Notes: a model not told the origin generated them from the letters alone. A stretch of 64,000 bases of DNA from Candidatus Poribacteria bacterium (GCA_022826645.1 JAJDUM010000063.1:11657-75656), one strand, 5' to 3'. Shown: positions 13,852 to 43,782, numbered from the stretch's first letter. Numbers and translations are program-made.

Positions 13852-14066
13852 TCAAATCCAGTTGGAAGAACAGACTTCCACTTGTCATGATGAAAATAGT
13901 CGTTCATATAAAATTAACCTAAGTTGCTTAGTTATAGAAAACGTTGCAAACTGAACGAATGAAAGCTATATTGAATCAATTACCGCCCCGATAAATCGGG
14001 ATTCAAAGCAACTCGCAGTGGATTGACAAATCCACTGCATACGTACAAAGATGGCTCCGTTCCGCC

Positions 14067-14083
14067 TGTCCCGCCTGTCCCGA
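14067..14083. repeat. small palindromic repeat GTCCCGATCCATCGGG(G)
   Basis: Identical 16-mer at 16329-16344; related CCCGATAAATCGGG at 13987-14000; adjacent 9-bp tandem GCCTGTCCC x2 (14054-14071). Confidence 0.7.
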
Positions 14084-14230
14084 TCCATCGGGGATCTTAT
14101 CGGGGAGAGTCCGAGACTTGGAAATGTCTATCCAAGCCGAGCGGGTGTGACAAATAGCAACTTGCGTTAAAATTAACTGCTTGAGAAGTTTCGGAGTTGA
14201 ACGCTCAAAGCCTTGTAGTTTAGCGATTCA

Positions 14231-22641: not shown

Positions 22642-22761
22642 AATATACCTTTCTGATAACACTCATGTAAGAAATTGTAAAGGCGAGGTAACCTGCCCGT
22701 GCCTTCTATAAGTACCTAAGTTGCTAGGGCGTGTTGACATTTGCGTAAAACTGCTCGTAAT

Positions 22762-22785
22762 CGTAGGGGCGAGGTTGCCTCGCCC
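22762..22785 (+). repeat. REP-like element (CGTAG + GGGCGAGG-TTG-CCTCGCCC hairpin); degenerate second copy at 22679-22708
   Basis: Perfect 8-bp stem; related sequence AAGGCGAGGTAACCTGCCCGTGCCTTCT 85 bp away in same orientation. Confidence 0.55.
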
Positions 22786-22799
22786 GTGCTTTCTGTGGA

Positions 22800-29232: not shown

Positions 29233-30261
29233 ATGCAAACTGACAAGAAACGCTGCGTCGTATTCGTATCACTCACCGGCGACGAGCAGATAAAATGCTA
29301 CGACATGGATCCTGATTCGGGTGCGCTACAGCTTCGATCGACCAGTAACGCCCACGGTCCCTCGGGCGCGCTCTGTCTCCACCCATCTGGAGAGATAATG
29401 TATGATGGTCATGTGGGATCAACCACATTAGCCAGTTTTCGCCTTGACACCAGTTCGGGCGAACTCACCCTTATCAACAAGGTAGACACAGGCGTCGATA
29501 TTCCTGCACACCTTACCACAGACAGGAACGGTCGCTTCCTGCTCACCGCGTACTACGGCGGTGGTGGCGTAACCGTGCATCGGCTGGGCGACGACGGTGC
29601 AATCGGGGATCTGGTGCAATATGTGGATACCGGTGAGAAGGCGCACGCAATCCTCGCTATGACCGAAGATCGGTTCGTCTTCGTGCCCCATGTCTGCCCA
29701 AATAACAGGACCTTTCAATTCCGATTCGATAGCGAGTCGGGGCAACTCACGCCCAATGATCCCGCCGAACTCGCACCACCCGACGACGAAACGGGTCCTC
29801 GCCACATCTGTTTTCGACCCGAAGGGGATGTTGCCTATATCGTCAATGAACAGGGTAACACAGTAACCGCCCACCGCTACCACCCCGAAAAGGGGACACT
29901 TGAGATCTTCCAAAACATCTCAACCTTGCCACCGGACTACACCGAAGGTGGGGCGACCGCCCACGTGGAAGTGCACCCGAATGGAAAGTGGGCGTATGCG
30001 TCCAATCGAGGTCACGACAGCATTGTCGGGTTTAACGTTGCTGTCGATGGATCGCTTAGTACATTCGGACATTTTCCTATCTCAGAAAGTCCACGGTCAT
30101 TCAATATCGACCCGACAGGCACCTATCTGTACGGTGCCGGTGAAGCGGCAGACACCATGACCTGCTATCGTGTAGACGGTGCTACCGGCGAACTGCAGCC
30201 GCTCCAAGACTACGCCGTTGGGAGTCAACCGTTTTGGGTTATGGTCACCCCGTTGGATTAG
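29233..30261 (+). CDS. lactonase, 7-bladed beta-propeller (6-phosphogluconolactonase/carboxy-cis,cis-muconate cyclase-like)
   Basis: 342 aa; repeated blade motifs (HPSGE, HLTTDRNGRFLLTAYYGGGGV, FRPEGDVAYIVNEQGNTV, HPNGKWAYASNRGHDSI, DPTGTYLYGAGEAADTM). Confidence 0.7.
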   Translation: MQTDKKRCVVFVSLTGDEQIKCYDMDPDSGALQLRSTSNAHGPSGALCLHPSGEIMYDGHVGSTTLASFRLDTSSGELTLINKVDTGVDIPAHLTTDRNGRFLLTAYYGGGGVTVHRLGDDGAIGDLVQYVDTGEKAHAILAMTEDRFVFVPHVCPNNRTFQFRFDSESGQLTPNDPAELAPPDDETGPRHICFRPEGDVAYIVNEQGNTVTAHRYHPEKGTLEIFQNISTLPPDYTEGGATAHVEVHPNGKWAYASNRGHDSIVGFNVAVDGSLSTFGHFPISESPRSFNIDPTGTYLYGAGEAADTMTCYRVDGATGELQPLQDYAVGSQPFWVMVTPLD

Positions 30262-30352
30262 GTCCGATTGAATTTGTTGTATTAATTATCGGTTGTGCCG
30301 AAACCAGATTTCAATTGACGGTGTCGCATCTTTACGCCGCCGAATAACTAAC

Positions 30353-30470
30353 ATCGCTCATGTTAAGAATTAGTGCAACAGCACCGACTTGCCTCAACAA
30401 CCGTAGGCGGGGCATCTTGCCCCGCTCTTAACGCTTTCACCGTAACTGCACTCTGTTTTTACATGAGCCA
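30353..30470 (+). repeat. 118-bp intergenic repeat element copy A (8-bp terminal inverted repeats GCTCATGT/ACATGAGC; internal REP-like hairpin)
   Basis: ~95% identical to 42659-42776 (6 mismatches); contains CCGTAG-GCGGGGC-ATCTT-GCCCCGC hairpin. Confidence 0.85.
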
Positions 30471-30497
30471 CTAACATATTATACAAGGAGAATAACA

Positions 30498-30815
30498 ATG
30501 GTTTATGAACTTCGTACCTATAGAATTCCAGAAGGCAAAATGCCGAACATTCTCAGTCGATTCGAGAATATCACCTTTGGTCTTTTTGAAAGACATGGCA
30601 TAGAATGTGTCGGATTCTGGACGCGATCTGATGCCAACGAATTGGTGTATATCTGTAGATATGAAAGTGAAGCAGCGATGGAAGCGGCATGGGAGGCTTT
30701 CCGTGCAGATCCCGAATGGCTTAAGGCTCGTGAAGTAACCGAGGCAGATGGACCAATTGTCGAGGAAGTCTTCTCGAATACCCTCATTCCGACCTCCTTC
30801 TCACCGATCCAGTGA
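30498..30815 (+). CDS. NIPSNAP family protein
   Basis: 105 aa; MVYELRTYRIPEGK N-terminus typical of NIPSNAP/dimeric alpha-beta barrel; AAGGAG SD. Confidence 0.8.
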   Translation: MVYELRTYRIPEGKMPNILSRFENITFGLFERHGIECVGFWTRSDANELVYICRYESEAAMEAAWEAFRADPEWLKAREVTEADGPIVEEVFSNTLIPTSFSPIQ

Positions 30816-30962
30816 AGGTTAGGCCTATCGAAGATTAGTTACAACAAAGTATCGTAGGTTGGGTTGAACGGCTGCAAGTGTCTTGCTATCAAGGGCAATA
30901 AAGGTTCTACTTTTTGACACTATGTTCTTAATAGATGACGAGGTAAAACCCAACACCGCACC

Positions 30963-30986
30963 CGTAGTTCGGGCATCTTGCCCGAA
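30963..30986 (+). repeat. REP-like element (CGTAG + 7-bp stem, ATCTT loop)
   Basis: cgtag-TTCGGGC-atctt-GCCCGAA; same head and loop as hairpin inside 118-bp element but compensatory stem sequence. Confidence 0.6.
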
Positions 30987-31010
30987 CTCAGCGATCCAAC
31001 GAAGTTAATT

Positions 31011-31045
31011 CGTAGGGAACGCAGATCTGCGTTCCGTTTCTTCTT
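31011..31045 (+). terminator. REP-like hairpin with U-tract, likely intrinsic terminator downstream of NIPSNAP gene
   Basis: cgtag-GGAACGC-agatct-GCGTTCC followed by GTTTCTTCTT. Confidence 0.5.
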
Positions 31046-31070
31046 ACTTGGGTCAACGTAGAATACTGCT

Positions 31071-32039
31071 ATGATAAATGTTGGACTCGTCGGTTTTGGC
31101 AAATGGGCTCGCCAAGCCTATACACCGCTGCTTGGCGAGTTTCCACAAGTCCGGGTTACAGCTATCTCTGCGCACAGTGATACCACAAGATCGCTGGCGA
31201 AACAGACATTTGGTGCAGAGACGAAGACGTTTGCGGATTACCACGATCTGTTGAACGATTCAACCGTCGATGCTGTTTTAATCGCACTCCCCAATTCCCT
31301 GCACGCGCCGGTCCTTCAAGCAGCATCAACATCCGGTAAGCATCTATTTTTTGAACCCCCCGTTGCAGAAGACCCGGAAACAGCCACGCACGTACTGGAC
31401 GCATTGGCGGCAAGTGAATGCGTGGTTCAAGCCGATTTGGAACTCCGATACCTCCCGGTAATGGACCAAGTTTTAGGAGTTCTCCAGTCCGGCACGATTG
31501 GCGAACCGTTGATGGCGAAGATCCGTCTATGGTGTAACTGGGGCTATGGGGGCGGTGAGTGGTATGACGAAGTTCAAGGACAAAGCTTCTTCCTTTGGCT
31601 GGGCTGTTGGTATCTTGATGCTCTGAATTGCGTCTTTACGCAGAGTACAACGCAAGCGTCTGTGGTGGGAGGACACTATAGTAACGGCACACTGATGGAT
31701 GCCGGTTGGGCGTCGCTGTTTTATCCTAACGGAGGAATCGGTCAGTTGGAATTTAACTTGGTGCTGCCACAAGAGACCGTCATTGAGCTGACCGTTGCCT
31801 GCCGGTCAGGAGAAATTGTCGCAGATTTACAGACGGGGGAATGGCGATGGCATGGGGAGACGGGCGATTGGCATCTCAAACACGCACCCGCATCGACACC
31901 CGCCTACGGATTCGTAGGTATGCGCGAAAGCCTGCAAGGATTCTTTGATGCCATTCGTGCCGATGGTCGTCCCCGTGCGAATGTTGATGTGATGCGCCGT
32001 ATTCAACACGCTGCACAACTCTGTGCGGATGCCGAGTGA
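31071..32039 (+). CDS. Gfo/Idh/MocA family oxidoreductase
   Basis: 322 aa; INVGLVGFGKWARQAY Rossmann N-terminus, FFEPP (EKP-like) motif. Confidence 0.85.
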   Translation: MINVGLVGFGKWARQAYTPLLGEFPQVRVTAISAHSDTTRSLAKQTFGAETKTFADYHDLLNDSTVDAVLIALPNSLHAPVLQAASTSGKHLFFEPPVAEDPETATHVLDALAASECVVQADLELRYLPVMDQVLGVLQSGTIGEPLMAKIRLWCNWGYGGGEWYDEVQGQSFFLWLGCWYLDALNCVFTQSTTQASVVGGHYSNGTLMDAGWASLFYPNGGIGQLEFNLVLPQETVIELTVACRSGEIVADLQTGEWRWHGETGDWHLKHAPASTPAYGFVGMRESLQGFFDAIRADGRPRANVDVMRRIQHAAQLCADAE

Positions 32040-32084
32040 AAGCATCATGGCAACACCACTGAGTATCTCTTTGAAAGGATCGAT

Positions 32085-32336
32085 ATGAGTTGGCTGGATG
32101 TTATCCAAATTGGACACGATTTGAAGGTGTGTCCCGACTGCGATCGCGAATATGAGTTGATGGATGAGTTTCTAGCAAAGAGGGATGAACCGCCGATCGG
32201 GGATGATTGGCTTGATGAGATGTTCAGCGAAGAGTATTACATCGCACTTCGGTGCCCGCAGTGTCTGGAAACACGAAATCTGCGCCTCAAATCGCTTACG
32301 CAAAAGCAATATGAAACAGCACGAGAAGAAAACTGA
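32085..32336 (+). CDS. small acidic zinc-ribbon protein (CxxC...CxxC)
   Basis: 83 aa; CPDC ... CPQC pairs; no homolog recognised. Confidence 0.4.
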   Translation: MSWLDVIQIGHDLKVCPDCDREYELMDEFLAKRDEPPIGDDWLDEMFSEEYYIALRCPQCLETRNLRLKSLTQKQYETAREEN

Positions 32337-32590
32337 CACCACCGAATCCAGCGAATAGTAACCAGCCCACCCGTGAATACTCACAAATGCAGCCCGATTG
32401 TGCCTCCTAAAATAATTGCCCTCCCATAGCCTAGTCTCTCTCTCAACCAAACTGATATTTTTGCGTCTAACACAGATCGAGTCCAATAAATTGATTTGAG
32501 TTCTATTTTTGAGTTAACCTGTTAATCGTTATTTGTTGGGAATGCAAGAAAATCCCAAAGTAGTATTCAAGCAATCGTAGGGGGAAATGC

Positions 32591-35500
32591 GTGCGAATTA
32601 TCAAAACTTCAAAACAACACCGTCCGTACCCGAAAAAAACATCGCTTTCTACACTATTTTCTAAAAACGGGTGCCGTTTAGCCATCCTTATTCTGCTGTT
32701 CCAATTTTTCCCGTCTCTCTTTTTTATGCAAGGCGGATCACTCGTTTGGGCGTTAAGGTTTCAGACCGCACCGAAGGTATTTGATGATGTCGATGAGGAT
32801 AATGTTTTTAGCCCAAATGGAGATGGTGTACAAGATACCCTCCTTATCAGTTTTGTTACCGATGGAGATCTCGGTGATTTCCGGATTATCATTGATACCC
32901 ATGGTCCGAGTGGGGTTGGCAGGCCCGATAATCAATTTCGCGTTGATGAGGATTGGGTAATAACAGGAGAGCTCGGTCCCGGAATTCATGAGGATGACCA
33001 TCCTAAAGCGATTCGTGAAGCGTGGGATGGACATGACTTTTCCAGACAGCAAGAGGAGAAGAATCCGCATCCACTCAGCGATGGAAGGTATCGAATTAGG
33101 ATCGAAATTGATGCTGTTCCCAACGGGGAAGTGAGTCGTGCGGAATCAGAATACGTTGCAGTTCAGCTTTCGGCGGTAATTGACAATGAGCCACCGCAAC
33201 TATCAGCTACGGTTTCCCAACGGGAATTGTCACCGAATGATGATACTATCATAGATGAAATACAGATCGCCTATGGACTTTCCGAGGATTTGGTGGAGCT
33301 TGAGTTGCAATTTACGAACCCATCAGATCGACCCCCAGTCACTCTAACCCGACTTACGGAAGATAACCACTCATTTACTTGGCGAGGGGATGATGGTTTA
33401 GGCACGCTACTAAGTGATGGTGACTATACCGCTCAACTGCACGGAAGCGACAAGGGCGGCAACACAGTAACTTTTGGACTTGGTACTTTCCAAATTGACA
33501 CAGAGCCTCCCACCATTGCCCAGTTGACGCCAAATCGCAACTCATTTCGGAATACACCGATTGAACAGATTGAGGTGATATTCGACATAGGAGATGGAAG
33601 TCTGATTGATGTTGATTCAACCTTCACGGAGATTGTCTTAGAGGATGCAACCGGTACACGAGCTAACGGGGTTCTTAATCATGATGAAAATGAAGGTCGC
33701 ATGACGCTGACGCTTGATAAGCCACTAGATTCGAGTGGCGAGAACGGAGTTTACAGAATCAGTATTTCTGCTGCAGACAAAGCTGGTAATATTGTCGTAG
33801 ATGAAGTTAGTTTCACCTTTGATAACGTTGCACCGACGATTGCAAGCATTGCTACTGATGCCGGTGAATTGACTCCCGATGCCAGTACCACCAAGAAATT
33901 TACTTTCCTTGATGTGACCTTGGCAGATAACATCGATTCTAGGGTCAATACTTCTTCAACGATTCGCTTGAGTAGGTCTGAGGGAACTGCAGTAGCTGGA
34001 GTTCAGAGTCAAGTTGGAGAAAACGGTCTCCGTTGGACACCGGGATTTCCGCTAGCGACAGATGGTTTTGACGACGGGAACTATACCATCACGGTGCAGT
34101 CTCGAGACCGGGCGGGAAATGAGGTTGAGATTCAGATCCCTTTCATCTACGATACCCAAGCCCCTGAATTAGCTTCACTCACCTCGCAGACAGGGATGCA
34201 GCTCAACTCTTCGGTAGGCGGAAAAACCTTCCTTAACAGTTCTCTGTCCGTGATAACAGCAATTGTTGATGATGAAAACGGGGGCGGCGTTGACTTCAGT
34301 AAAACATCTATTGCGATGCTTGGTGTCACCCAGGTGGCTGGGATAGAAATTCCAGCAGCCATTCAAGGGACACTAACGTCTGATGAAGATAATGACACGC
34401 TAGAATTTCGACTGGACGAGCCACTTGAACACCGTGACGGAAGTCAGGACAGCACCTATCGTATTCAGGTGAGATTGACGGACAAAGCGGGTAATACACA
34501 GACTGAGTTTTTTGATATCGCTTATGATACGCAAATTCCTGCTATTATTTCAACAACCCCGGCTGAAAATGAGACCGTTTCATCCCTGTCACAAGTGTCA
34601 GTTGTCCTGAATGTCGACAGCGGGATTGATTTTTCTGCTTCCGGCGTCAGATTACTCCGTGCGGATGGAAGTGAAGTGAACACCCAGGTACACGACAACG
34701 GCAGAGACACAGTTTCTCTCACCTTGGCGCAACTGTTGGCAATTGACGGATCAGAGGACGGTGCATATACCATTGAAATCACCCCCGTAGATGGTGCAAA
34801 CAACGCGGGACCAACCGTTCGACGCCAATTTTTCATCGCATTGCGGATGCCGGAAATTCGCCTGAATATCCCCACTGAAGCCCGAATCAATGACTTAACA
34901 ACCGTTGATGCGCAGCTGTTTAACTACATCGGTCCGGGGCTTAATTTTGCTGAATCAGAGTCAACAATAACAGTTAGCAGGAATGGGGTAACTGTAGAAG
35001 CAAAACCCGTGATGGCAGATGAAGACAGTATGCGTCTGGTCTGGAGCATCGACAGATCCCTTTCTCGAGATGGTTCGGCGGACGGCGAATACACCGTCAG
35101 CGTCCAATATACGGATCTCATCGGCGAAACGCTTACAGAGGATTTTATTCTGACCTTCGACAGCCAGCCCCCAACAATCGCCGCTGACTCCCATCCCCAA
35201 ATCGCAAATCCCCTTACTACAGAGCGAATTGAAGTTCAATTTGAGGTGACTGATGACTTTGCAGGTGTACAGGGAAGTGGATTTGACGCTGCCACCTCAA
35301 CCTTTGAGTTGTTTGATGTAAACGGTGCTACGGTTGACGGTGCACAAACAAGCGATGGTACCGGTAGATTTGCGTTTCGCTCTCGTGTGCTTCCAGAGGG
35401 TGGCATGTATATCCTCGTTATTACGCTAGCGGATCGGGCGGGCAACCGCAGCATCCCACTGCCGCTTATCTACGATGCCGAAGAGCCTACCATTGAAACA

Positions 35501-38500
35501 GTAAGTCACATTGATCTGACCGCAACTGTCTCCAATGTGAGTGAATTTCTGATGCGAGTGGAAGCGACCGTTAGCGATGTTGGCACAGGTATTGATTTCG
35601 ATCGATCTCTAATTCAGTTGTTGGATGCCACGGGTGAGGCAGTCCCCGGTACACCATATCACGATGATGAAGCCATAATTGGGTGGGAGTTGGCAACCCC
35701 ACTCACCCGTGAAGGCAATTTTGACGGTCTCTACTCACTCCGCGTCAGTGCTGTTGACAAAGCCGGATACGTCGAGGAAAAAACCTTTGCTGTGCGTTAC
35801 GACACGCAGGTGCCCTCTATCCAAACTGCTTTTGCTACAAAAAAGGATGGCACACCTGTAGAACTATCCGAAGCAGAAGCCCCACTGGTTACTTCTCCAA
35901 TTAATCGAGTTACTGTGAGATTCTCTGATGGGGCGGGCAGCGGTATGGATGTTTTACGAACAGCGCTAAGCCTTATCGGGCCAGATGGAGAGCCAATTGG
36001 CACGAACCAGAGTGATAACGAGGTAGATACAGTTTCCCTTTCGTTCAATGCGTTGCGCGCAGATGGATCCGACGATGGGGCTTACCGGATTCAGGTAACC
36101 CCCACCGATTTAGCAGGTAACACCCTCACAAGCCCGGTTGAAATCCTATTTTTCTACGGTACGCGCCAGCCAGAAGTTCTTTCTACAACACCGGCTGAAT
36201 TTGCAGCCGTCACCCATCTCACCGAAGTCAGTGCGATGCTGCAAGACCATAGCAGCGAGGGCATTGATTTTGATCGTGCGTCAATTCGCTTAATTGCTCC
36301 AGACCAATCGGCAATTCTTGGCTATCAAACGGTAGACGAAGCACAATCATCAATTACTTGGCAACTAAACCAACCACTATCACGGGACGGTTCAGCGGAT
36401 GGTGAATACACTATTCAACTATTGCCTGTTGATAAAGCAGGGAACAGTGCAGATATCGAGCATACATTCGTCTACGACACACGGATTCCGACCGTTGTTT
36501 CCGTGACAGCGAACACCAATCCGCTAACAGTTATTCCACCAAATGAATCAACTGCCATTGGCAGTTCCTTTAAAGGATTGACCATCCAGCTTTCTGATAC
36601 AAATGGCGCAACGACACAGGTAAGTGGGGTAGATCTGGTGGGCACCGATGTCCAACTAATCGGTCCCGGTGATACGTCGCTCGGTATCAACACCCGCGAT
36701 GATGGGGTAGATACCATTATAGTCAGTTTCGCTTCGTTGTATCAGTCCGGAACTTACACGCTCGAAATCATACCGCGGGACATGGCAGGTAATGTCTCAA
36801 TTCACCCCATCGAGTACGAATTCGGCTTGGAGCTTGGACACAGTACTGTTTCCGCCGTAACAATTGGTGGTCGAATGGTGCCGGTTGAATTTGTGAACCG
36901 GTTGGACGAAATCGTTGCAACGCTTGAAGATGTTAGTGCTACCGGTTTGAACTTGGCATCAGATGGCTCAACCATTACCGTAATGGGGCCCGATGGCGAG
37001 GTTGAAGGGGTTCAGACCTCACGCGGAGGAAACCAGATTGTGTGGAGACCACTACAGCACACCACAGATGGTTCTGCTGATGGCGTCTACACCGTAACAG
37101 TTACCCCTGTAAATAGTGGTGGTAGATTGGGGATACCTGCTCGGTATCAATTCACGCTTGATACACAGGAACCTGAAGTGGCTTCGGTAACGCCAATCGA
37201 TTTGACGCAGCCGCTGTCCTACATCAGTCAGCAGATTATCCAAATTGCAGCTCAGGTTGAGGATGTGGGACCCGCGGGCTTGGAGGTTAATGACCAACGT
37301 CTTGAACTTCGTGATCCAAGAGGGAATGTTGTGCCAGCGGTGCAGTCCAACGATGGGCAAGCTCAGATTTTCCTAACACTCTCGCAACCCCTTACAGCCG
37401 ATGGAAGCGATGATGGACGATATACCGTCAACCTAGACCTAACAGACAAAGCCGGTAATATTAATCCACTTACCCATCAACTCGTCTACGACACTCAAGC
37501 CCCAACGCTTGTCAGCACTGATCCAACCGATGGCGATCTCCGTAGCGACGATATTACCATAATTACAGCCAATCTGAGAGACCCTGGCAATAGCGGTATC
37601 GATTTTACCGCTTCTGCGTTGACGCTGTTAGATCCAACGGGGACTTCAATTAGCGGTGTACAGAGCAACGATGGGAATCGAAAGCTGGCATTGCAAATCA
37701 ACGGTCTTATAGCGGACGGCACTTACACAATCCGTGTAGATGCAATTGATCGTGCCGGCAACGGATTAAACACCCCGTTTGAAACGCACTTCACCTATTC
37801 ATCCGGTATGCCCGTTGTGGTTTCAACTGTTCCGATAACTACGCCCGCGGAGGAAGCATTTACAAATGAACCGCTCCGTCAAGTTGAAGCCGAATTCCAA
37901 TCGAGTGATGGGGATGTTAATCGCTCTACTATTGCATTGCTTGCCCCCAATGGTACGACTGTTCCAGGACAGCAGGTGCGTCAAGGAAAAATGTTGATTT
38001 ATCGACTCTTGCGCGAACTCGCTACCGATGGATCCGACGATGGTACTTATACCATTGTGGTAGTACCTGTCAATAGCGCAGGGCGACAAGGTGCCCCGCA
38101 GCAGTTTACCTTTGTTTATGACACGGTTGCACCCGAAGTGGAGCCGGGCTCAATTCAACTGATCGTTGCTGAACCGGATGTCAATAATTCGCTGGTTTCG
38201 CTCGGTGCGCTCATCACAGATGACGAACCCGGTTCCGGAGTGGATTGGGATAACCTCGATCTGTCATGGATTACGTTTGATGATATCAGTCGAAAGCGGA
38301 AAATTGACGGGACCCTTGCTACCGATGAAGAACAAGCACTCGTGATAAACCTGATTATGCCACTCGCTAGCGATGGAAGTCAAGATGGTATATATCAGTT
38401 GACGCTTGCCCCCAAGGATCGTGCGGGAAATGTTACTCCAGCGGTTGAATACCTGTTTTTCTACGACACACGTCCGCCGGCGATCGACACTGAATCCTTA

Positions 38501-39526
38501 TTCATTGATGGGCAGCCTTTATTCACTGACTCAAACGATCCGTATTATCCTTCGGCGACCAGTATGGGCGGTGGTGTTACCATTGATGCGAAGTTCTCCG
38601 ATGTCAATCCGGATGGCAGCCCAGGTCTTGGGCCTGATCTAGTCAATTCGTCGATTACTGTGCGTTCCCCTGCTGGAGACGAGATCAGCGGGACCACAAC
38701 ACAGAACGGCACTGACAGCATCCGCTTCAAATCTGGACCGCTCGATGAACAGGGACTTTACCAGGTGACGATTACCAGTGTCGGTTTGGACATTGCAAAT
38801 CTCGGATTCCAACCGACCGATTCGGTCACGACACAATTTCTCTTTGAAACTACAAAGCCAGTTGTTGAGTTGACGGATTTAGTTGGGGAAACAACCTTTG
38901 AGGATGAACCATTACCACTACAAGGCACTGCACGCGATCCATCGGAGGCTGATATCCCCGCATCTGACGTCGCGCTGGTTGAAGTTGTTGGTATCGGGCC
39001 CGATGGTTTTCCGATTGAGCCGGTTGCTGCAAAAGATGAAAGCGAAGGGGAGGAAGATCCTTGGACGCGTTGGTCGGTTGATTTTCTGCCTTCTCAATCT
39101 GGTGAATACAACCTCGATATTCGCGTCACCGATCGTGCTGGTAATGCCGGTATTTACGATGCCGTGACTGTCAATTTTTCAGTGTCACTTATCTTCAAGG
39201 GGCCAACATATGTTTGGCCCAATCCACTCAGCCTGTCAAGACGTTCAAACGACGAAATGGCTCACTTCTCCTTTGAAGTCAATGTTCCCGGTGGCGAAGG
39301 GGCGCGGATTGTCCTAAGTATCTATGACTTTTCTGGCGACTTGGTGTACGAAAAGGAATATAATGACTTGGGGGCCGGCAGGAGCGATAATGAAGTGAGG
39401 TGGGATTTAACCAATCAGGTCGGTACTGATGTTGCCCGTGGAATTTATATTTTCCGCTTAGAAGCGGAGGATATTGTAACGAGCAACCGCACCAATGCGG
39501 TTGGAAAGATTGTCGTGGTGGAGTAG
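32591..39526 (+). CDS. giant surface protein: signal peptide, N-terminal FlgD-Ig-like domain, ~19 SbsA/Big_5-like Ig repeats, C-terminal FlgD-Ig/T9SS-CTD-like sorting domain
   Basis: 2311 aa from GTG 32591 (GGGGGA SD); FSPNGDGVQDTL ... AWDGHDF (FlgD-Ig) at N-term; ~19 repeats ending in DGxYTxxVxxxDxAGN; C-terminal WPNP...IYDFSGDLVYE...WDLTNQVG...GIYIFRLEAED...KIVVVE. Confidence 0.85.
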   Translation: MRIIKTSKQHRPYPKKTSLSTLFSKNGCRLAILILLFQFFPSLFFMQGGSLVWALRFQTAPKVFDDVDEDNVFSPNGDGVQDTLLISFVTDGDLGDFRIIIDTHGPSGVGRPDNQFRVDEDWVITGELGPGIHEDDHPKAIREAWDGHDFSRQQEEKNPHPLSDGRYRIRIEIDAVPNGEVSRAESEYVAVQLSAVIDNEPPQLSATVSQRELSPNDDTIIDEIQIAYGLSEDLVELELQFTNPSDRPPVTLTRLTEDNHSFTWRGDDGLGTLLSDGDYTAQLHGSDKGGNTVTFGLGTFQIDTEPPTIAQLTPNRNSFRNTPIEQIEVIFDIGDGSLIDVDSTFTEIVLEDATGTRANGVLNHDENEGRMTLTLDKPLDSSGENGVYRISISAADKAGNIVVDEVSFTFDNVAPTIASIATDAGELTPDASTTKKFTFLDVTLADNIDSRVNTSSTIRLSRSEGTAVAGVQSQVGENGLRWTPGFPLATDGFDDGNYTITVQSRDRAGNEVEIQIPFIYDTQAPELASLTSQTGMQLNSSVGGKTFLNSSLSVITAIVDDENGGGVDFSKTSIAMLGVTQVAGIEIPAAIQGTLTSDEDNDTLEFRLDEPLEHRDGSQDSTYRIQVRLTDKAGNTQTEFFDIAYDTQIPAIISTTPAENETVSSLSQVSVVLNVDSGIDFSASGVRLLRADGSEVNTQVHDNGRDTVSLTLAQLLAIDGSEDGAYTIEITPVDGANNAGPTVRRQFFIALRMPEIRLNIPTEARINDLTTVDAQLFNYIGPGLNFAESESTITVSRNGVTVEAKPVMADEDSMRLVWSIDRSLSRDGSADGEYTVSVQYTDLIGETLTEDFILTFDSQPPTIAADSHPQIANPLTTERIEVQFEVTDDFAGVQGSGFDAATSTFELFDVNGATVDGAQTSDGTGRFAFRSRVLPEGGMYILVITLADRAGNRSIPLPLIYDAEEPTIETVSHIDLTATVSNVSEFLMRVEATVSDVGTGIDFDRSLIQLLDATGEAVPGTPYHDDEAIIGWELATPLTREGNFDGLYSLRVSAVDKAGYVEEKTFAVRYDTQVPSIQTAFATKKDGTPVELSEAEAPLVTSPINRVTVRFSDGAGSGMDVLRTALSLIGPDGEPIGTNQSDNEVDTVSLSFNALRADGSDDGAYRIQVTPTDLAGNTLTSPVEILFFYGTRQPEVLSTTPAEFAAVTHLTEVSAMLQDHSSEGIDFDRASIRLIAPDQSAILGYQTVDEAQSSITWQLNQPLSRDGSADGEYTIQLLPVDKAGNSADIEHTFVYDTRIPTVVSVTANTNPLTVIPPNESTAIGSSFKGLTIQLSDTNGATTQVSGVDLVGTDVQLIGPGDTSLGINTRDDGVDTIIVSFASLYQSGTYTLEIIPRDMAGNVSIHPIEYEFGLELGHSTVSAVTIGGRMVPVEFVNRLDEIVATLEDVSATGLNLASDGSTITVMGPDGEVEGVQTSRGGNQIVWRPLQHTTDGSADGVYTVTVTPVNSGGRLGIPARYQFTLDTQEPEVASVTPIDLTQPLSYISQQIIQIAAQVEDVGPAGLEVNDQRLELRDPRGNVVPAVQSNDGQAQIFLTLSQPLTADGSDDGRYTVNLDLTDKAGNINPLTHQLVYDTQAPTLVSTDPTDGDLRSDDITIITANLRDPGNSGIDFTASALTLLDPTGTSISGVQSNDGNRKLALQINGLIADGTYTIRVDAIDRAGNGLNTPFETHFTYSSGMPVVVSTVPITTPAEEAFTNEPLRQVEAEFQSSDGDVNRSTIALLAPNGTTVPGQQVRQGKMLIYRLLRELATDGSDDGTYTIVVVPVNSAGRQGAPQQFTFVYDTVAPEVEPGSIQLIVAEPDVNNSLVSLGALITDDEPGSGVDWDNLDLSWITFDDISRKRKIDGTLATDEEQALVINLIMPLASDGSQDGIYQLTLAPKDRAGNVTPAVEYLFFYDTRPPAIDTESLFIDGQPLFTDSNDPYYPSATSMGGGVTIDAKFSDVNPDGSPGLGPDLVNSSITVRSPAGDEISGTTTQNGTDSIRFKSGPLDEQGLYQVTITSVGLDIANLGFQPTDSVTTQFLFETTKPVVELTDLVGETTFEDEPLPLQGTARDPSEADIPASDVALVEVVGIGPDGFPIEPVAAKDESEGEEDPWTRWSVDFLPSQSGEYNLDIRVTDRAGNAGIYDAVTVNFSVSLIFKGPTYVWPNPLSLSRRSNDEMAHFSFEVNVPGGEGARIVLSIYDFSGDLVYEKEYNDLGAGRSDNEVRWDLTNQVGTDVARGIYIFRLEAEDIVTSNRTNAVGKIVVVE

Positions 39527-39604
39527 GTGCGAGTATCCCATTTGAATATAGGTCAAGAGTTAAGGCATTCATTTATGAACCAAAATAAAGAATTGGAGAA
39601 ACGG

Positions 39605-40576
39605 ATGTCCCTAAAACAGAATTTGAAGTTATTCTGCGTCATAGTTTTTGCGATTATTGCTTTTCCCGCTTTTGCCGCAGATATTCACGATGATGCTGGC
39701 ACAGTGGGTGCTGCATTTCTCAAGATTGAGGCTGGGAGCCGTCCCGCTGGTATGGGGGGCGCGTTCGCAGGATTGGCTAACGACGTCAATACCATATACT
39801 GGAATCCCGCTGGCTTGGCAGCGGTCAGCGGACGGCAATTTACTGCGATGCAGAATTTTTCGATTGCAGATATTAGTAACCAATTCCTTGGCTATGCAAA
39901 TAAATTCAGCGAAAAAGCCACTTGGGGAGCGAGTTTCCTCGGTGCGTTTACAGAGATTGAACGCCGTCGTCGACCAACGGAGGAGCCTGATAGCACTGCC
40001 ACAGTTGGAGGTTTTGCTGCGGGCGTGTCTATCGGATATATCTTATCCCCACATTTGTCAGTTGGAGCCACAGCGAAAACAATTTCGCAACAGCTCGACG
40101 TCGAGGACTCAATAGGTGGTGCTGCCGATGTTGGGCTGCTGTTACGAATGCTAGACAATCGACTTGGCCTGGGATTCGCCGCACAAAACTTAGGTTTTCT
40201 GGATACAGGAGAAAATCTGCCGATGAATGTACGGACTGGCATCGCTTACCACGTCCGCACTAAACCTAATGCTGAGGCTGCTAAGCAGCCGCAAGACCTT
40301 TTAGCATTAGCTGCGGACATCAACTACCCTATTGTTGGCGGGTTCCCCACCTTTCATTTAGGTGCGGAGAATTGGCTCTATAACATGCTTGCCCTTCGCG
40401 TTGGATATAGTTTTAGTCAAGGAGAGAATCCCAAAAATGGATTGACCGCCGGGTTTGGATTGCGTCGACTTGGGGAAGCCTCTCTGGAAAATGTCAATTT
40501 TCAGTTGGACTATGCCTTTGTTCCGGATCAAGCGGTCGGAAATGCTCACCGAGTCTCTCTCCTCCTGCGATTCTAA
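39605..40576 (+). CDS. outer-membrane beta-barrel protein, PorV/PorQ/FadL-like (UPF0164-like) family
   Basis: Start at MSLKQNLKLFCVIVFAIIAFPAFA signal peptide (GGAGAAA SD); GSRPAGMGGAFAGLANDVNTIYWNPAGLA hallmark motif; C-terminal F residue. Upstream part of track ORF (39527) overlaps giant gene stop. Confidence 0.55.
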   Translation: MSLKQNLKLFCVIVFAIIAFPAFAADIHDDAGTVGAAFLKIEAGSRPAGMGGAFAGLANDVNTIYWNPAGLAAVSGRQFTAMQNFSIADISNQFLGYANKFSEKATWGASFLGAFTEIERRRRPTEEPDSTATVGGFAAGVSIGYILSPHLSVGATAKTISQQLDVEDSIGGAADVGLLLRMLDNRLGLGFAAQNLGFLDTGENLPMNVRTGIAYHVRTKPNAEAAKQPQDLLALAADINYPIVGGFPTFHLGAENWLYNMLALRVGYSFSQGENPKNGLTAGFGLRRLGEASLENVNFQLDYAFVPDQAVGNAHRVSLLLRF

Positions 40577-40638
40577 ACGTCAATCGCTTCTACTCGCTAA
40601 ACAAATTTAGACGTGCCTACCCCAACTGGAGCATTCCA

Positions 40639-41673
40639 ATGAACATTATCTGCACAGGAATCAGTTGTTCAGGACGAAAAGAATTGATGGGAGAGTTTAA
40701 AGCACTCTGCCGCGATAAAGGAATCCGGATTGGGTTTTTCAACGTCGGCGATTTTATGCACAACGCGGCTGCAGCTTCCGGCATCCAATTCACGGACAAA
40801 GTGCTTGACTCGGATCCCGCTGTCCTTTCGTTGGCACGCCGATCGGCTTTCTATGAAATAGCCAATATCGCGCATGACTATGATCATACCTTCGTTGGTT
40901 TGCACGCTTGCTTCCGCTGGAATGGAAAACTGGTTGAAGGTGTCTCGTTCAAGGATATGCAGGGTTTCCCGGGCGACGTGTTCGTCAATGTGGTCGACAA
41001 TCTTGCCGACATTGCTCAACGTATGGACGATAATCCGCAGTGGACGGGTATGCGACGCGATGAAATTAATGTCTGGCTCGATGAAGAAGAATTCCTGACC
41101 AAACAATTTGCGAACCTCAAGGAAAAAAATCACTATACTGTTGCTCGACAGCACAATCTGGAAAACTTCTATGACCTGCTTTTTTCAAAGAAGAAAAAAT
41201 TCTACTTGAGCTATCCGATCACACTTCTTCGCCAAGACGCACCGGATCAGATTCAAAGCATCCGTGAGTTTGGCTCAAAGATGCGGAAAAACTTTATCAT
41301 ATTTGATCCGCTCGATATTGCAGATATGGACCTGATTCATTCCACGGAATCACCTCAGGAGGAGACAACTGACGGGGAAATTCCAACTGTAAGTGATATC
41401 GATCAAGATTTCAATGTGCAGATTAAGACACGCACCATCTCCAGAGACTACCAATTCATCCATCAGAGCGATTTTGTTATTGTTATCTATCCAACCGACA
41501 AACTCTCCCCCGGTGTCTTGAGTGAAATGAACTTTGCTTCCCGCTATAATAAACCGGTTTATGCTGTATACTCCCATGCGCGTAGTCCATTTTTCGAGCA
41601 TCTGTGTGAACGAATCTTTGATTCCATTGAGGAACTCGAAACTTTTTTGGAAGATCAGCAGATGCGACTTTAG
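40639..41673 (+). CDS. hypothetical two-domain protein: N-terminal kinase-like domain with degenerate P-loop + C-terminal nucleoside 2-deoxyribosyltransferase-like (NDT/DNPH1-like) domain
   Basis: 344 aa; TGISCSGRKE near N-term; C-terminal KFYLSYPITLL ... SDFVIVIYPTDKLSPGVLSEMNFASRYNKPVYAV matching NDT-like Rossmann fold pattern. Confidence 0.45.
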   Translation: MNIICTGISCSGRKELMGEFKALCRDKGIRIGFFNVGDFMHNAAAASGIQFTDKVLDSDPAVLSLARRSAFYEIANIAHDYDHTFVGLHACFRWNGKLVEGVSFKDMQGFPGDVFVNVVDNLADIAQRMDDNPQWTGMRRDEINVWLDEEEFLTKQFANLKEKNHYTVARQHNLENFYDLLFSKKKKFYLSYPITLLRQDAPDQIQSIREFGSKMRKNFIIFDPLDIADMDLIHSTESPQEETTDGEIPTVSDIDQDFNVQIKTRTISRDYQFIHQSDFVIVIYPTDKLSPGVLSEMNFASRYNKPVYAVYSHARSPFFEHLCERIFDSIEELETFLEDQQMRL

Positions 41674-41759
41674 TGGAGGGGCGACCGTAGGACCGCGAAA
41701 CGTGCGGTTTGGTAAGCATTGGCACAATCCAACAAGGTCAGGATATAGTCTATACCAGC

Positions 41760-42653
41760 ATGAAAATTGGCATCATCTCCTTTGGTACGCAAAACCATGC
41801 TACACGACGCTTGGTTGAAGCGACCCTCGCAGCCGGACACATACCGAAAGTTCTCAACCCTTTTGGATTCTATCTGCATATCGGCAGTTTAGGGGCGTCT
41901 ATCTACTACGAAGAAACCCCTGCCACAGATTTCGATGTCGTACTCCCGCGTCTGAGTGCTGCAACTGCACGATATGGCGAGGAGGTGGTAGCACATCTTG
42001 AGTGGAATGACACACCGGTAGTCAATCGATCATACGCGATTGTAAACGCCCGAAATAAGTTCCGTACCCTCCGTATCCTTGCCCAGCATGGCTTACCTGT
42101 CCCACCCAGCTTTGCTGCAGGTTCAGCTCGTCATGTGGATCGATCTGCAGAGCAGACCGGCGAATACCCTTTCATAATGAAACCCTTCGAGGGAACCCAC
42201 GGCAATGCAATTTTGCTGCTCGACACGCCGGGTTCTCTGACATCGGCGATTGATGCAATGTGTGATCTCCACCAAGACTATGTCATCCAACCTTTTATCG
42301 AAGAATCGGCGGGGAACGATCTGCGCGTGATTGTCGTCGGGGGAAGGGTTGTGGCTGCCATGAGAAGGACGGCACAGGAAGGCGAGTTCCGAGCAAACGT
42401 TCATCGCGGTGGACAAGGACATCCTGTGGAGCTTCACGGCGAATATATTGATACCGCAATCCGGGCTACCGAAGCGATGGAATTAAGTATTGCGGGGGTA
42501 GATCTGTTGGAGACACAAGCGGGACCCATGGTGTTGGAGGTCAATCCCTCGCCGGGGTTTGAAGAAATTGAAGCGGTTACCGGAATCAAAGTCGCAGAGG
42601 CAATGATTGCGTTTGCTGTCGAATATTCTCAGGCTGCAAGAAAAATACGCTAA
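41760..42653 (+). CDS. RimK-family ATP-grasp ligase (alpha-L-glutamate ligase-like)
   Basis: Start at MKIGIISFG (ATG 41760; track ORF begins at TTG 41709); ATP-grasp motifs FIMKPFEGTHGNAILLL, YVIQPFIEESAGNDLRVIVVGGRVVAAMRR, VDLLETQAGPMVLEVNPSPGF. Confidence 0.8.
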   Translation: MKIGIISFGTQNHATRRLVEATLAAGHIPKVLNPFGFYLHIGSLGASIYYEETPATDFDVVLPRLSAATARYGEEVVAHLEWNDTPVVNRSYAIVNARNKFRTLRILAQHGLPVPPSFAAGSARHVDRSAEQTGEYPFIMKPFEGTHGNAILLLDTPGSLTSAIDAMCDLHQDYVIQPFIEESAGNDLRVIVVGGRVVAAMRRTAQEGEFRANVHRGGQGHPVELHGEYIDTAIRATEAMELSIAGVDLLETQAGPMVLEVNPSPGFEEIEAVTGIKVAEAMIAFAVEYSQAARKIR

Positions 42654-42658
42654 TTTTT

Positions 42659-42776
42659 ATCGCTCATGTTAAGAATTAGTGCAACAGCACCAACTTGCCT
42701 CAAAAACCGTAGGCGGGGCATCTTGCCCCGCCCTCAACGCTTTCACCGTAATTGCACTCGGTTTTTACATGAGCCA
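42659..42776 (+). repeat. 118-bp intergenic repeat element copy B
   Basis: ~95% identical to 30353-30470; begins 6 bp after RimK-like stop codon. Confidence 0.85.
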
Positions 42777-42924
42777 TTTTTATTACTGATGAGCCAATAT
42801 AGTACGGTATGAGTAGAAAGAGGGTTTAAAGTTTAACCAACGTACACTTGCAGCTTGGTGCAGATTAGCAGGGATTCGATAGCTAAATTGCTACATGATA
42901 TAACGTTAGAGGGTTAGGATACCC

Positions 42925-43782
42925 ATGATCATTGACTGTCATACCCATTTCTGGCGATATCCGGGGGAACTCACCGAGGAACTCGCCCGCGAAACTTACA
43001 TCATGCGTCAACAAGAGGTTGATTTGGACATCACACCGGAGATGCATGCCTCCGCTGTGGCAAAAGCAGACCGTGCCATTGTGTTTGGACTGCGCGCACC
43101 GCTTACTGGATTCCTTACAGTCAACGACACCGTAGCCGAATATATCCGCACGGATCCGAAGAAACTGATAGGCTTTGCAGCAATCTGCCCAACTGAAGAT
43201 CACGCACTTGAGGAGGTGGACCGGGCTGTTCAAAAGTTGGGGCTTCGTGGGCTGAAGATGAGTCCAATCTACGGTGGCTGGGATCCGCTGGACCCACGTG
43301 CCCTGAAAATCTTTGCGCGCGCTGAGGAGCTTGGGCTGCCAATCATGTTACATCAAGGCACAACCTATCCCCGGAAAGCGCCGCTCAAGTACGCCAATCC
43401 GGTTCTCCTCGAAGATATCGCACTGCGTTACCCTGATCTGAAGATGATCATCGCCCATATCGGACACCCTTGGGAAGCCGAAGCCATTGTCCTTATCCGC
43501 AAGCAACCCAATGTTTTCGCCGATATCTCCGCCCTATTCTACCGTCCTTGGCAATACTACAACTCGCTACGGTTGGCGGTCGAATACGGTGTCGCCGACA
43601 AGCTGCTTTTCGGCACCGATTATCCTATAACCACTTTCGATGAATCCGTCAAGGGCCTACACGATGTTGTTAAACTCTCCCAAGAGATGCGACTACCTCC
43701 TCTGCCGGAAGATCTGCCAGCCCAGATCTTGCATCGTGATACATTGGGACTTCTGGGCCTTGATGATCCCGCCTCCCTCTAA
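42925..43782 (+). CDS. amidohydrolase-2 family TIM-barrel metal-dependent hydrolase
   Basis: 285 aa; MIIDCHTHFW N-terminus (His pair), FGTDYP near C-term; PF04909-like. Confidence 0.75.
   Translation: MIIDCHTHFWRYPGELTEELARETYIMRQQEVDLDITPEMHASAVAKADRAIVFGLRAPLTGFLTVNDTVAEYIRTDPKKLIGFAAICPTEDHALEEVDRAVQKLGLRGLKMSPIYGGWDPLDPRALKIFARAEELGLPIMLHQGTTYPRKAPLKYANPVLLEDIALRYPDLKMIIAHIGHPWEAEAIVLIRKQPNVFADISALFYRPWQYYNSLRLAVEYGVADKLLFGTDYPITTFDESVKGLHDVVKLSQEMRLPPLPEDLPAQILHRDTLGLLGLDDPASL

Follow-up and report, generated by a model that had tools for sequence, protein, structure and literature searches.

We analysed a 64,000-nt stretch of DNA from a Candidatus Poribacteria bacterium (GCA_022826645.1, JAJDUM010000063.1:11657-75656; hereafter the window), in which a short intergenic repeat is present as two copies, here called copy A and copy B. 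Both copies are very probably insertions of one non-autonomous DNA transposon: a 115-bp MITE (miniature inverted-repeat transposable element) that derives from the IS1595 family of insertion sequences (IS) and carries a nested repetitive extragenic palindrome (REP). The evidence consists of the anatomy of the element, its target-site duplications (TSDs), empty sites in sister strains, its dispersal, its subfamilies, and matching IS1595-family elements that have 8-bp TSDs.

A sequence-only reading of the window had described a 118-bp direct repeat with about 95% identity and six differences. Gapless alignment of the two stretches (30353-30470 and 42659-42776) bore this out, with 95% identity and six mismatches. 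The copies lie in direct orientation, 12.3 kb apart, and searches with the whole unit or with its ends found these two copies only in the window; the 25-mer CCGTAGGCGGGGCATCTTGCCCCGC occurred exactly twice, versus zero occurrences expected in shuffled sequence. Although the repeat is real, the element proper is 115 nt long, and the alignment, the TSDs and the empty sites place it on the plus strand at 30355-30469 (copy A) and 42661-42775 (copy B). Similarity between the copies ends at these edges, save for one or two chance bases. The 118-mer was three bases longer because two different TSDs happen to match there, giving AT upstream and A downstream. The ends GCTCATGT and ACATGAGC were present in both copies, beginning 3 nt inside the 118-bp coordinates, and the TSDs lie directly outside GCTCATGT…ACATGAGC plus one base per side. 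Each copy had its own perfect 8-bp direct repeat on both sides, and the two differ in sequence: ACTAACAT for copy A (30347-30354 and 30470-30477) and ATTTTTAT for copy B (42653-42660 and 42776-42783).

The inverted ends had also been noticed earlier, as 8-bp repeats; they exist, but they are imperfect terminal inverted repeats of about 24 nt (18 of 24 positions complementary by manual count). Those of copy A are CGCTCATGTTAAGAATTAGTGCAA on the left (30355-30378) and CTGCACTCTGTTTTTACATGAGCC on the right (30446-30469), and those of copy B occupy 42661-42684 and, as TTGCACTCGGTTTTTACATGAGCC, 42752-42775, all given on the plus strand. The left terminus reads (C/G)GCTCATGTTAAGAATTAGTGCAA and the right terminus TTGCACTC(G/T)GTTTTTACATGAGCC, so that the ends follow the pattern GGCTCATGT…GTGCAA. 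At 115 nt, and within spacers between called genes, the element has no coding capacity. Its central module is a 23-nt plus-strand hairpin, GTAG-GCGGGGC-ATCTT-GCCCCGC, located at 30403-30425 in copy A and at 42709-42731 in copy B.

We compared both insertion sites with those of related strains, whose contigs were retrieved by exact-protein look-up (the RimK-like protein was searched from an internal ATG). Copy A lies between a lactonase-family gene, which ends at 30261, and a NIPSNAP gene, which starts at 30498. All five contigs that encode an identical NIPSNAP protein (L112-L116, from Tara and Logan assemblies) were empty at this locus: in the alignment the site reads …GAATAACTAACATATTATACAAGGAG…, with a single ACTAACAT and no element, and the lactonase-NIPSNAP spacer is 110-113 nt versus 236 nt in the window. 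Copy B is flanked by a RimK-like ATP-grasp gene, which ends at 42653, and an Amidohydro_2 gene, which starts at 42925. Here the empty contigs were L120 and L121, whose RimK-like proteins are 96-97% identical to that of the window; their spacer is 147-148 nt with a single ATATTTAT, versus 271 nt in the window. The excess in the window is exactly 123 nt (115 + 8) relative to four of the five copy A contigs and relative to L120 at copy B. A more distant species had a 46-nt spacer at the copy B locus. These comparisons show that copies A and B are both insertions, which were gained, or precisely lost, inside a shallow clade. Two further contigs from a single run (SRR16351679) stop at copy B from opposite sides: L117 (1-28) ends inside the copy and L118 (3395-3429) ends at its first base. 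This pattern indicates a repeat-induced assembly break, and hence that the element is present at the copy B site in that sample.

The element belongs to a dispersed family. An exact search with a 20-mer from the hairpin core, run against one genome per GTDB species, returned at least 111 stretches (loci L001-L111). Among the matches listed, 106 of the 111 stretches came from Candidatus Poribacteria metagenome-assembled genomes, often with many per chromosome and on both strands. The window's own proteins cluster with proteins from Poribacteria genomes; the RimK cluster, for example, includes a protein on the 6,153,685-nt contig OZ241983.1. BLAST against these loci revealed four more full-length 115-nt copies with 87-97% identity (L001, L014, L045 and L090), which come from three Poribacteria chromosomes, as well as partial and variant copies. 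The copy in L001, from a different species-level genome, is 97.4% identical to copy B, whereas copy A and copy B are 94.9% identical to each other. Family copies were found in at least 10 Poribacteria species-level assemblies among the matches listed, and the search for further copies that the sequence-only reading had proposed revealed a multi-copy, dispersed element.

When members were gathered as pairs of GCTCATGT and ACATGAGC ends, the family proved to have constant termini and variable interiors, with lengths of 91, 104, 110-114, 115, 172, 185 and 197 nt. The 91-nt form has a central palindrome of its own, GAAACCGAGTTTT…AAAACTCGGTTTC, without the G+C-rich hairpin; the 104-nt and 115-nt forms hold the hairpin in forward orientation and the 110-114-nt forms in reverse; and the 172-, 185- and 197-nt forms hold further nested inserts, as do the first ~370 nt of the L017 copy. 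Perfect TSDs of 8-10 bp flank ten other copies (L001, L014, L037, L039, L045, L090, L093, L100, L105 and L111), and the duplicated targets are mostly A/T-rich. All 19 copies that were scored are intergenic. Relative to the flanking open reading frames (ORFs), their orientation was same/same in six cases, opposite/opposite in six and mixed in five, with one flank scored in the remaining two. BLAST searches of plasmid and phage collections with the element as query found no match. Solitary ends in the Poribacteria loci were considered as possible ends of full-length IS and rejected, as every one turned out to be a MITE with nested inserts or a decayed second end.

Autonomous elements with the same ends were found outside these loci. 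A degenerate form of the end pattern, GGCTCATGTNAARAANNNGTGCAA, matched 69 stretches in JGI metagenomes, most of which are 91-196-nt elements of the same kind; the matches in six viral contigs and in several freshwater sequences lie inside long ORFs and were discarded as coincidental coding matches. Locus L157 contained a 975-bp element with the ends of the MITE and a frameshifted ORF. Its corrected translation matched Pfam DDE_Tnp_IS1595 (PF12762; 59.8 bits, cut-off 27) and NCBIfam transpos_IS1595 (NF033547; 98.5 bits, cut-off 75), and homologues of this ORF are intact proteins of 307 aa. Three of these homologues led us to 11 genomic IS copies (L198-L209). All are 985 bp long and start with GGCTCATGT; ten end with ACATGAGCC, and the other (L209) ends with ACATGAGCG, its last base being G. 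Perfect 8-bp TSDs lie directly outside the ends of eight of the 11 copies. Another IS, the 986-bp element of L210, starts with GGCTCATGT, ends with ACATGAGCC and encodes P0122, the second-best homologue of the L157 ORF. Every 985- or 986-bp copy has a single 307-aa ORF with the precomputed Pfam annotation DDE_Tnp_IS1595. In one of the genomes with a 985-bp IS, a 91-nt MITE flanked by an 8-bp duplication lies 3.3 kb away from that IS.

The ends of these IS closely resemble those of the window element. The right end of the L210 IS, reverse-complemented (GCTCATGTTAAGAGTTAGTGCAA), is identical at 22 of 23 positions to the left end of the window element (GCTCATGTTAAGAATTAGTGCAA), and identity with the ends of other IS copies is 20-22 of 26. 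In its first 14 nt (GGCTCATGTAAAAA) and in a GTGC further on, the reverse complement of copy B's right end agrees with the left end of the 985-bp IS copies. P0122 falls in a 90%-identity cluster with MCZ6676462.1, which is annotated as 'IS1595 family transposase [Candidatus Poribacteria bacterium]', and ISApl4, a member of the IS1595 family, has been reported to make A/T-rich 8-bp direct repeats (PMC12561309). Because the ends are shared with elements that encode an IS1595-type DDE transposase, and because both have 8-bp TSDs, we assigned the element to this family, of which it appears, as judged from sequence, to be a non-autonomous derivative.

We propose that an IS1595-family DDE transposase would be supplied in trans by an IS of ~985 bp with the same ends. 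The transposase would bind the imperfect ends of ~24 bp (GGCTCATGT(T/A)AA(G/A)A…GTGCAA) and insert the element into mostly A/T-rich intergenic DNA, duplicating 8 bp of target. The subfamily in the window would have gained the 23-nt GTAG-tagged REP at its centre, as a separate repeat module that travels as a passenger. We infer that an IS1595 transposase in the window's own genome moved both copies. Several observations weigh against this explanation. Neither the 64-kb window nor the 111 Poribacteria loci that we sampled yielded an intact IS bounded by these ends, and the only IS1595-like gene seen there was that of L060 (26% identity, with no matching inverted repeat around it). The link between the IS and Poribacteria comes from the one cluster annotation given above, and the L210 IS lacks a clean 8-bp duplication. 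Moreover, transposition itself is inferred from presence and absence among strains.

The L060 gene had been considered as a candidate parent and was rejected, given its 26% identity to the IS and the lack of a matching terminal inverted repeat nearby. It is a different IS1595-like transposase gene (L060:5668-6534, 288 aa), and adjoining it is a 435-aa ORF (L060:6680-7987) that is putatively transposase-like; neither has GGCTCATGT ends. A separate ~196-nt element, which shares the first 24 nt (GGCTCATGTCAAGAACGAGTGCAAGGGGAAGCGGGTC…), abounds in two metagenome series, Ga0302046 and Ga0299906 (L132, L133, L141, L155, L159, L164, L166, L173, L177, L178, L180, L186 and L190). Ends of this type thus occur beyond Poribacteria as well.

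We next consider the central hairpin, which the sequence-only reading had called REP-like. This description held, and the hairpin also carries a GTAG tag. In 118 of 128 instances among the matches listed, the searched 20-mer has GTA directly before it, although these bases lay outside the query, and GTA is itself usually preceded by CC or CT. Among the same matches, 125 REP instances fell into 38 flank clusters, 29 of them singletons. The REP occurs in at least nine recurrent flank contexts, several of which are bounded by other inverted repeats, and also in head-to-tail arrays. By contrast with both window copies, which have a single REP each, the 91-nt subfamily of the same MITE has none. 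Because this GTAG-tagged REP recurs in many unrelated repeat contexts in Poribacteria, it is a nested passenger here. In the three forward-REP subfamilies the REP abuts GAAACC, and in the single reverse subfamily it abuts the complement, GGTTTC; the REP junction is the same on either strand of the palindromic centre. The REP did not arrive by simple insertion, as the old central palindrome is no longer complete.

The GTAG tag defines the largest REP superfamily, whose members are associated with REP-associated tyrosine transposases (RAYTs), combine an unpaired GTAG with a 6-13-bp stem and a short loop, reach high copy number and occur in several phyla, including the Planctomycetes-Verrucomicrobia-Chlamydiae (PVC) group (Di Nocera et al. 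2013, PMC3733652). The Poribacteria hairpin resembles them in its unpaired GTAG, its G+C-rich 7-8-bp stem and its short loop, and in being high-copy and extragenic, with several stem variants in the same genome. REPs are regularly found inside larger palindromes, such as the GTAG-15 dimers of A. variabilis, and head-to-tail dimers are rare in most REP families (PMC3733652). The present case differs in that a single REP sits inside a transposase-bounded MITE, and in that arrays here are mostly head-to-tail, versus the head-to-head dimers that are common elsewhere. We searched for a RAYT gene by tblastn with an E. coli RAYT sequence and by scanning ORFs for HUH/Y motifs. Neither the window nor the ~0.9 Mb of Poribacteria DNA around the REPs (111 loci) gave a credible hit, which is a weak negative for searches of loci rather than of whole genomes. 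We tentatively raise the possibility, which we hold to be rather less probable than not, that the GTAG hairpin is a module that spreads on its own and has more than once invaded the palindromic centre of Poribacteria MITEs from unrelated families, forming 'Russian-doll' nests. If Poribacteria should have no RAYT, the REP would spread mainly by hitch-hiking on transposase-mobilised MITEs, a route that is undescribed for REPs.

Several loci contained nested or tandem arrangements of these repeats. At L014:5549-5760 a 115-nt element has inserted into an older copy of the 91-nt type, within its right inverted repeat, and the duplication that flanks the insert, TTCTTAAC, derives from the older copy's repeat. 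At L005:5480-5662 a copy of the 115-nt subfamily has its REP split by another small palindromic element (GTAGG, ~70 nt, then TTGCCCCGC), so that this copy comprises three levels of nesting. A CCCGAT…ATCGGG motif is nested inside the MITE copies of L005 and L059. Small palindromes of the type CCCGAT(N2-4)ATCGGG also occur in the window, together with a GCAGTGGATTGACAAATCCACTGC hairpin, in the intergenic stretch 13915-14169, which resembles L100:1615-1780 (78-94%). Head-to-tail REP arrays with periods of 66-141 nt were seen at L067:242-637 and also in L008, L075 and L048; in the L067 array, REPs and copies of another GTAG hairpin, GTAGGGTGGGCACTGCCCACC, follow each other in turn.

Three more GTAG hairpins, of different stem, were seen in the window. 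One of them, GTAGTTCGGGCATCTTGCCCGAAC (30958-30990), combines the loop of the nested REP with a different, fully compensated stem. It lies with a second, GTAGGGAACGCAGATCTGCGTTCC (31006-31040), in the spacer between the NIPSNAP gene and a GFO_IDH_MocA gene, which is of equal length (255 nt) in the Tara relatives. The third, GTAGGGGCGAGGTTGCCTCGCCC (22757-22790), is flanked by two minus-strand genes. In all, five GTAG hairpins were detected in the window, every one of them on the plus strand, whatever the direction of the genes; this could reflect a replication-strand bias, five being too few to tell.

Three other explanations for the repeat were weighed. The sequence-only reading had offered a structured cis-regulatory RNA, such as a terminator or attenuator, as one of its two interpretations. 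In the form weighed here, the repeat would be an attenuator, a terminator or an mRNA-stabilising stem-loop, conserved for its effect on plus-strand transcripts. The predicted plus-strand folds are indeed very stable, at −41.6 kcal/mol for copy A and −45.4 kcal/mol for copy B (z about −6.5 versus shuffles for both), and the two window copies point the same way, each between co-directional genes. Effects of MITEs and REPs on mRNA stability have also been reported from other bacteria (PMC3733652), and a secondary effect on the NIPSNAP or Amidohydro_2 transcripts is possible. The minus strand, however, folded strongly as well (z of −3.2 for copy A and −6.6 for copy B); strong folding on both strands is what inverted ends plus an internal palindrome would be expected to give in any element. 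The outer helix corresponds to the predicted transposase-binding ends, which are also found on the coding IS. Scans found no sigma-70-like promoter and no intrinsic terminator on the plus strand of either copy, and no U-run follows any hairpin on the gene strand; the terminator scan gave one weak site, on the minus strand of copy B only. No Rfam family matched anywhere in the window at the gathering score, and at E ≤ 10 copy A gave chance-level matches only (best 18.5 bits versus a cut-off of 49.9). A covariation check on the RNA structure found no compensatory change in any of 40 predicted pairs across six copies, a comparison of low power. Furthermore, orientations are mixed among the 19 scored family copies, and the element is absent from strains whose flanking proteins are identical or 96-97% identical. 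We consider a regulatory RNA improbable as the explanation of the repeat.

The unit might alternatively be of the REPIN type (a REP doublet forming a hairpin), moved as single-stranded DNA by a RAYT acting on the GTAG hairpin and with no DDE transposase involved. Its central hairpin has the GTAG tag of RAYT-associated REPs (PMC3733652), and the whole unit can form one long hairpin, as REPINs do; like them it is small and non-autonomous (Bertels and Rainey 2011, PMC3116915). REPINs, though, consist of two inverted REPs moved by a RAYT, whereas the window unit has one REP and DDE-type ends. The 91-nt copies have the same ends and no REP, which shows the REP to be dispensable, and the weak negative from the RAYT search points the same way. 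The insertions also have 8-bp TSDs, which are typical of DDE transposition and are not known to be made by single-strand transposition of the IS200/IS605 type. We regard this alternative as very unlikely, and of the earlier 'MITE/REPIN-like mobile sequence' the MITE part stands (inverted ends, TSDs, empty sites, dispersal and an IS1595 partner) and the REPIN part falls (single REP, TSDs). The possibility to which we attach hardly any credence is that a local segmental duplication in the 12-kb region left both copies behind as remnants, the scenario that the sequence-only reading had named as its refutation. It would agree with the window's having just two copies, which share one orientation and are separated by 12.3 kb, but not with similarity that ends at the element edges, with a different 8-bp TSD for each copy, or with full-length copies in other genomes, of which the L001 copy is closer to copy B than copy A is. 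Both sites being empty in near-identical strains, with the 123-nt difference in length, excludes such a duplication.

The IS1595-derived MITE with its nested REP is preferred over these alternatives, and as a kind of element it is ordinary. It shares with known bacterial MITEs (RUP, NEMIS/Correia, ERIC and Nezha; PMC3733652) a length of 70-300 bp, the lack of coding sequence, terminal inverted repeats of 15-30 bp, TSDs, multiple intergenic copies that are often near coding sequences, a strong hairpin and a related autonomous IS. It differs from them in its Candidatus Poribacteria host, its IS1595 parent and its mosaic centre with a nested REP. With IS1595-family IS it shares ends of the form GGCTCATGT…ACATGAGCC (up to 22 of 23 identical) and 8-bp, mostly A/T-rich TSDs; it differs from them in being 115 bp long, in having no transposase gene and in showing no obvious interior similarity by eye. 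A literature search, limited to the papers available, found no prior description of MITEs or REPs in Poribacteria.

These results have practical consequences. Elements of this family should be masked as mobile DNA in Poribacteria genomes rather than called as small RNAs or attenuators, and they can break short-read assemblies, as in the sample in which two contigs end at copy B. Both insertions are polymorphic among close strains, which points to recent transposon activity in an uncultivated sponge symbiont and makes them usable as strain markers. It is possible that the insert alters the mRNA of neighbouring genes, since copy A places a very stable predicted hairpin (about −41.6 kcal/mol) near the start of the NIPSNAP gene; its right end is 28 nt upstream of the ATG, and strains with filled and empty sites offer a natural test of expression. 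The mosaic of MITE, GTAG REP and small palindromes extends REP-type repeats to another PVC-related lineage and provides material on how REPs spread. The findings overturn no current understanding, and the nested repeat mosaic is the part that might repay further work.

All four genes that flank the copies are on the plus strand. The earlier observation that both copies lie in the same orientation, downstream of one plus-strand gene and upstream of another, was correct. At copy B the left TSD begins with the base that also closes the TAA stop codon of the RimK-like gene. Directly after the right TSD of copy B, at 42784-42800, the window reads TACTGATGAGCCAAT, which resembles the element terminus ACATGAGCC and is conserved in relatives that lack the element. 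We considered whether the ATGAGCCAAT motif here might be an old element end and rejected the idea, as no related repeat was found elsewhere; the similar motif in L014, by contrast, belongs to a true MITE-in-MITE insertion. Downstream of copy A, the GFO_IDH_MocA gene is one ORF of 322 aa in the window (31071-32039), and in the Tara relatives without copy A (L112:3574-4542) two ORFs of 156 and 114 aa were called in its place. A frameshift, a pseudogene or an error of assembly could account for the split.

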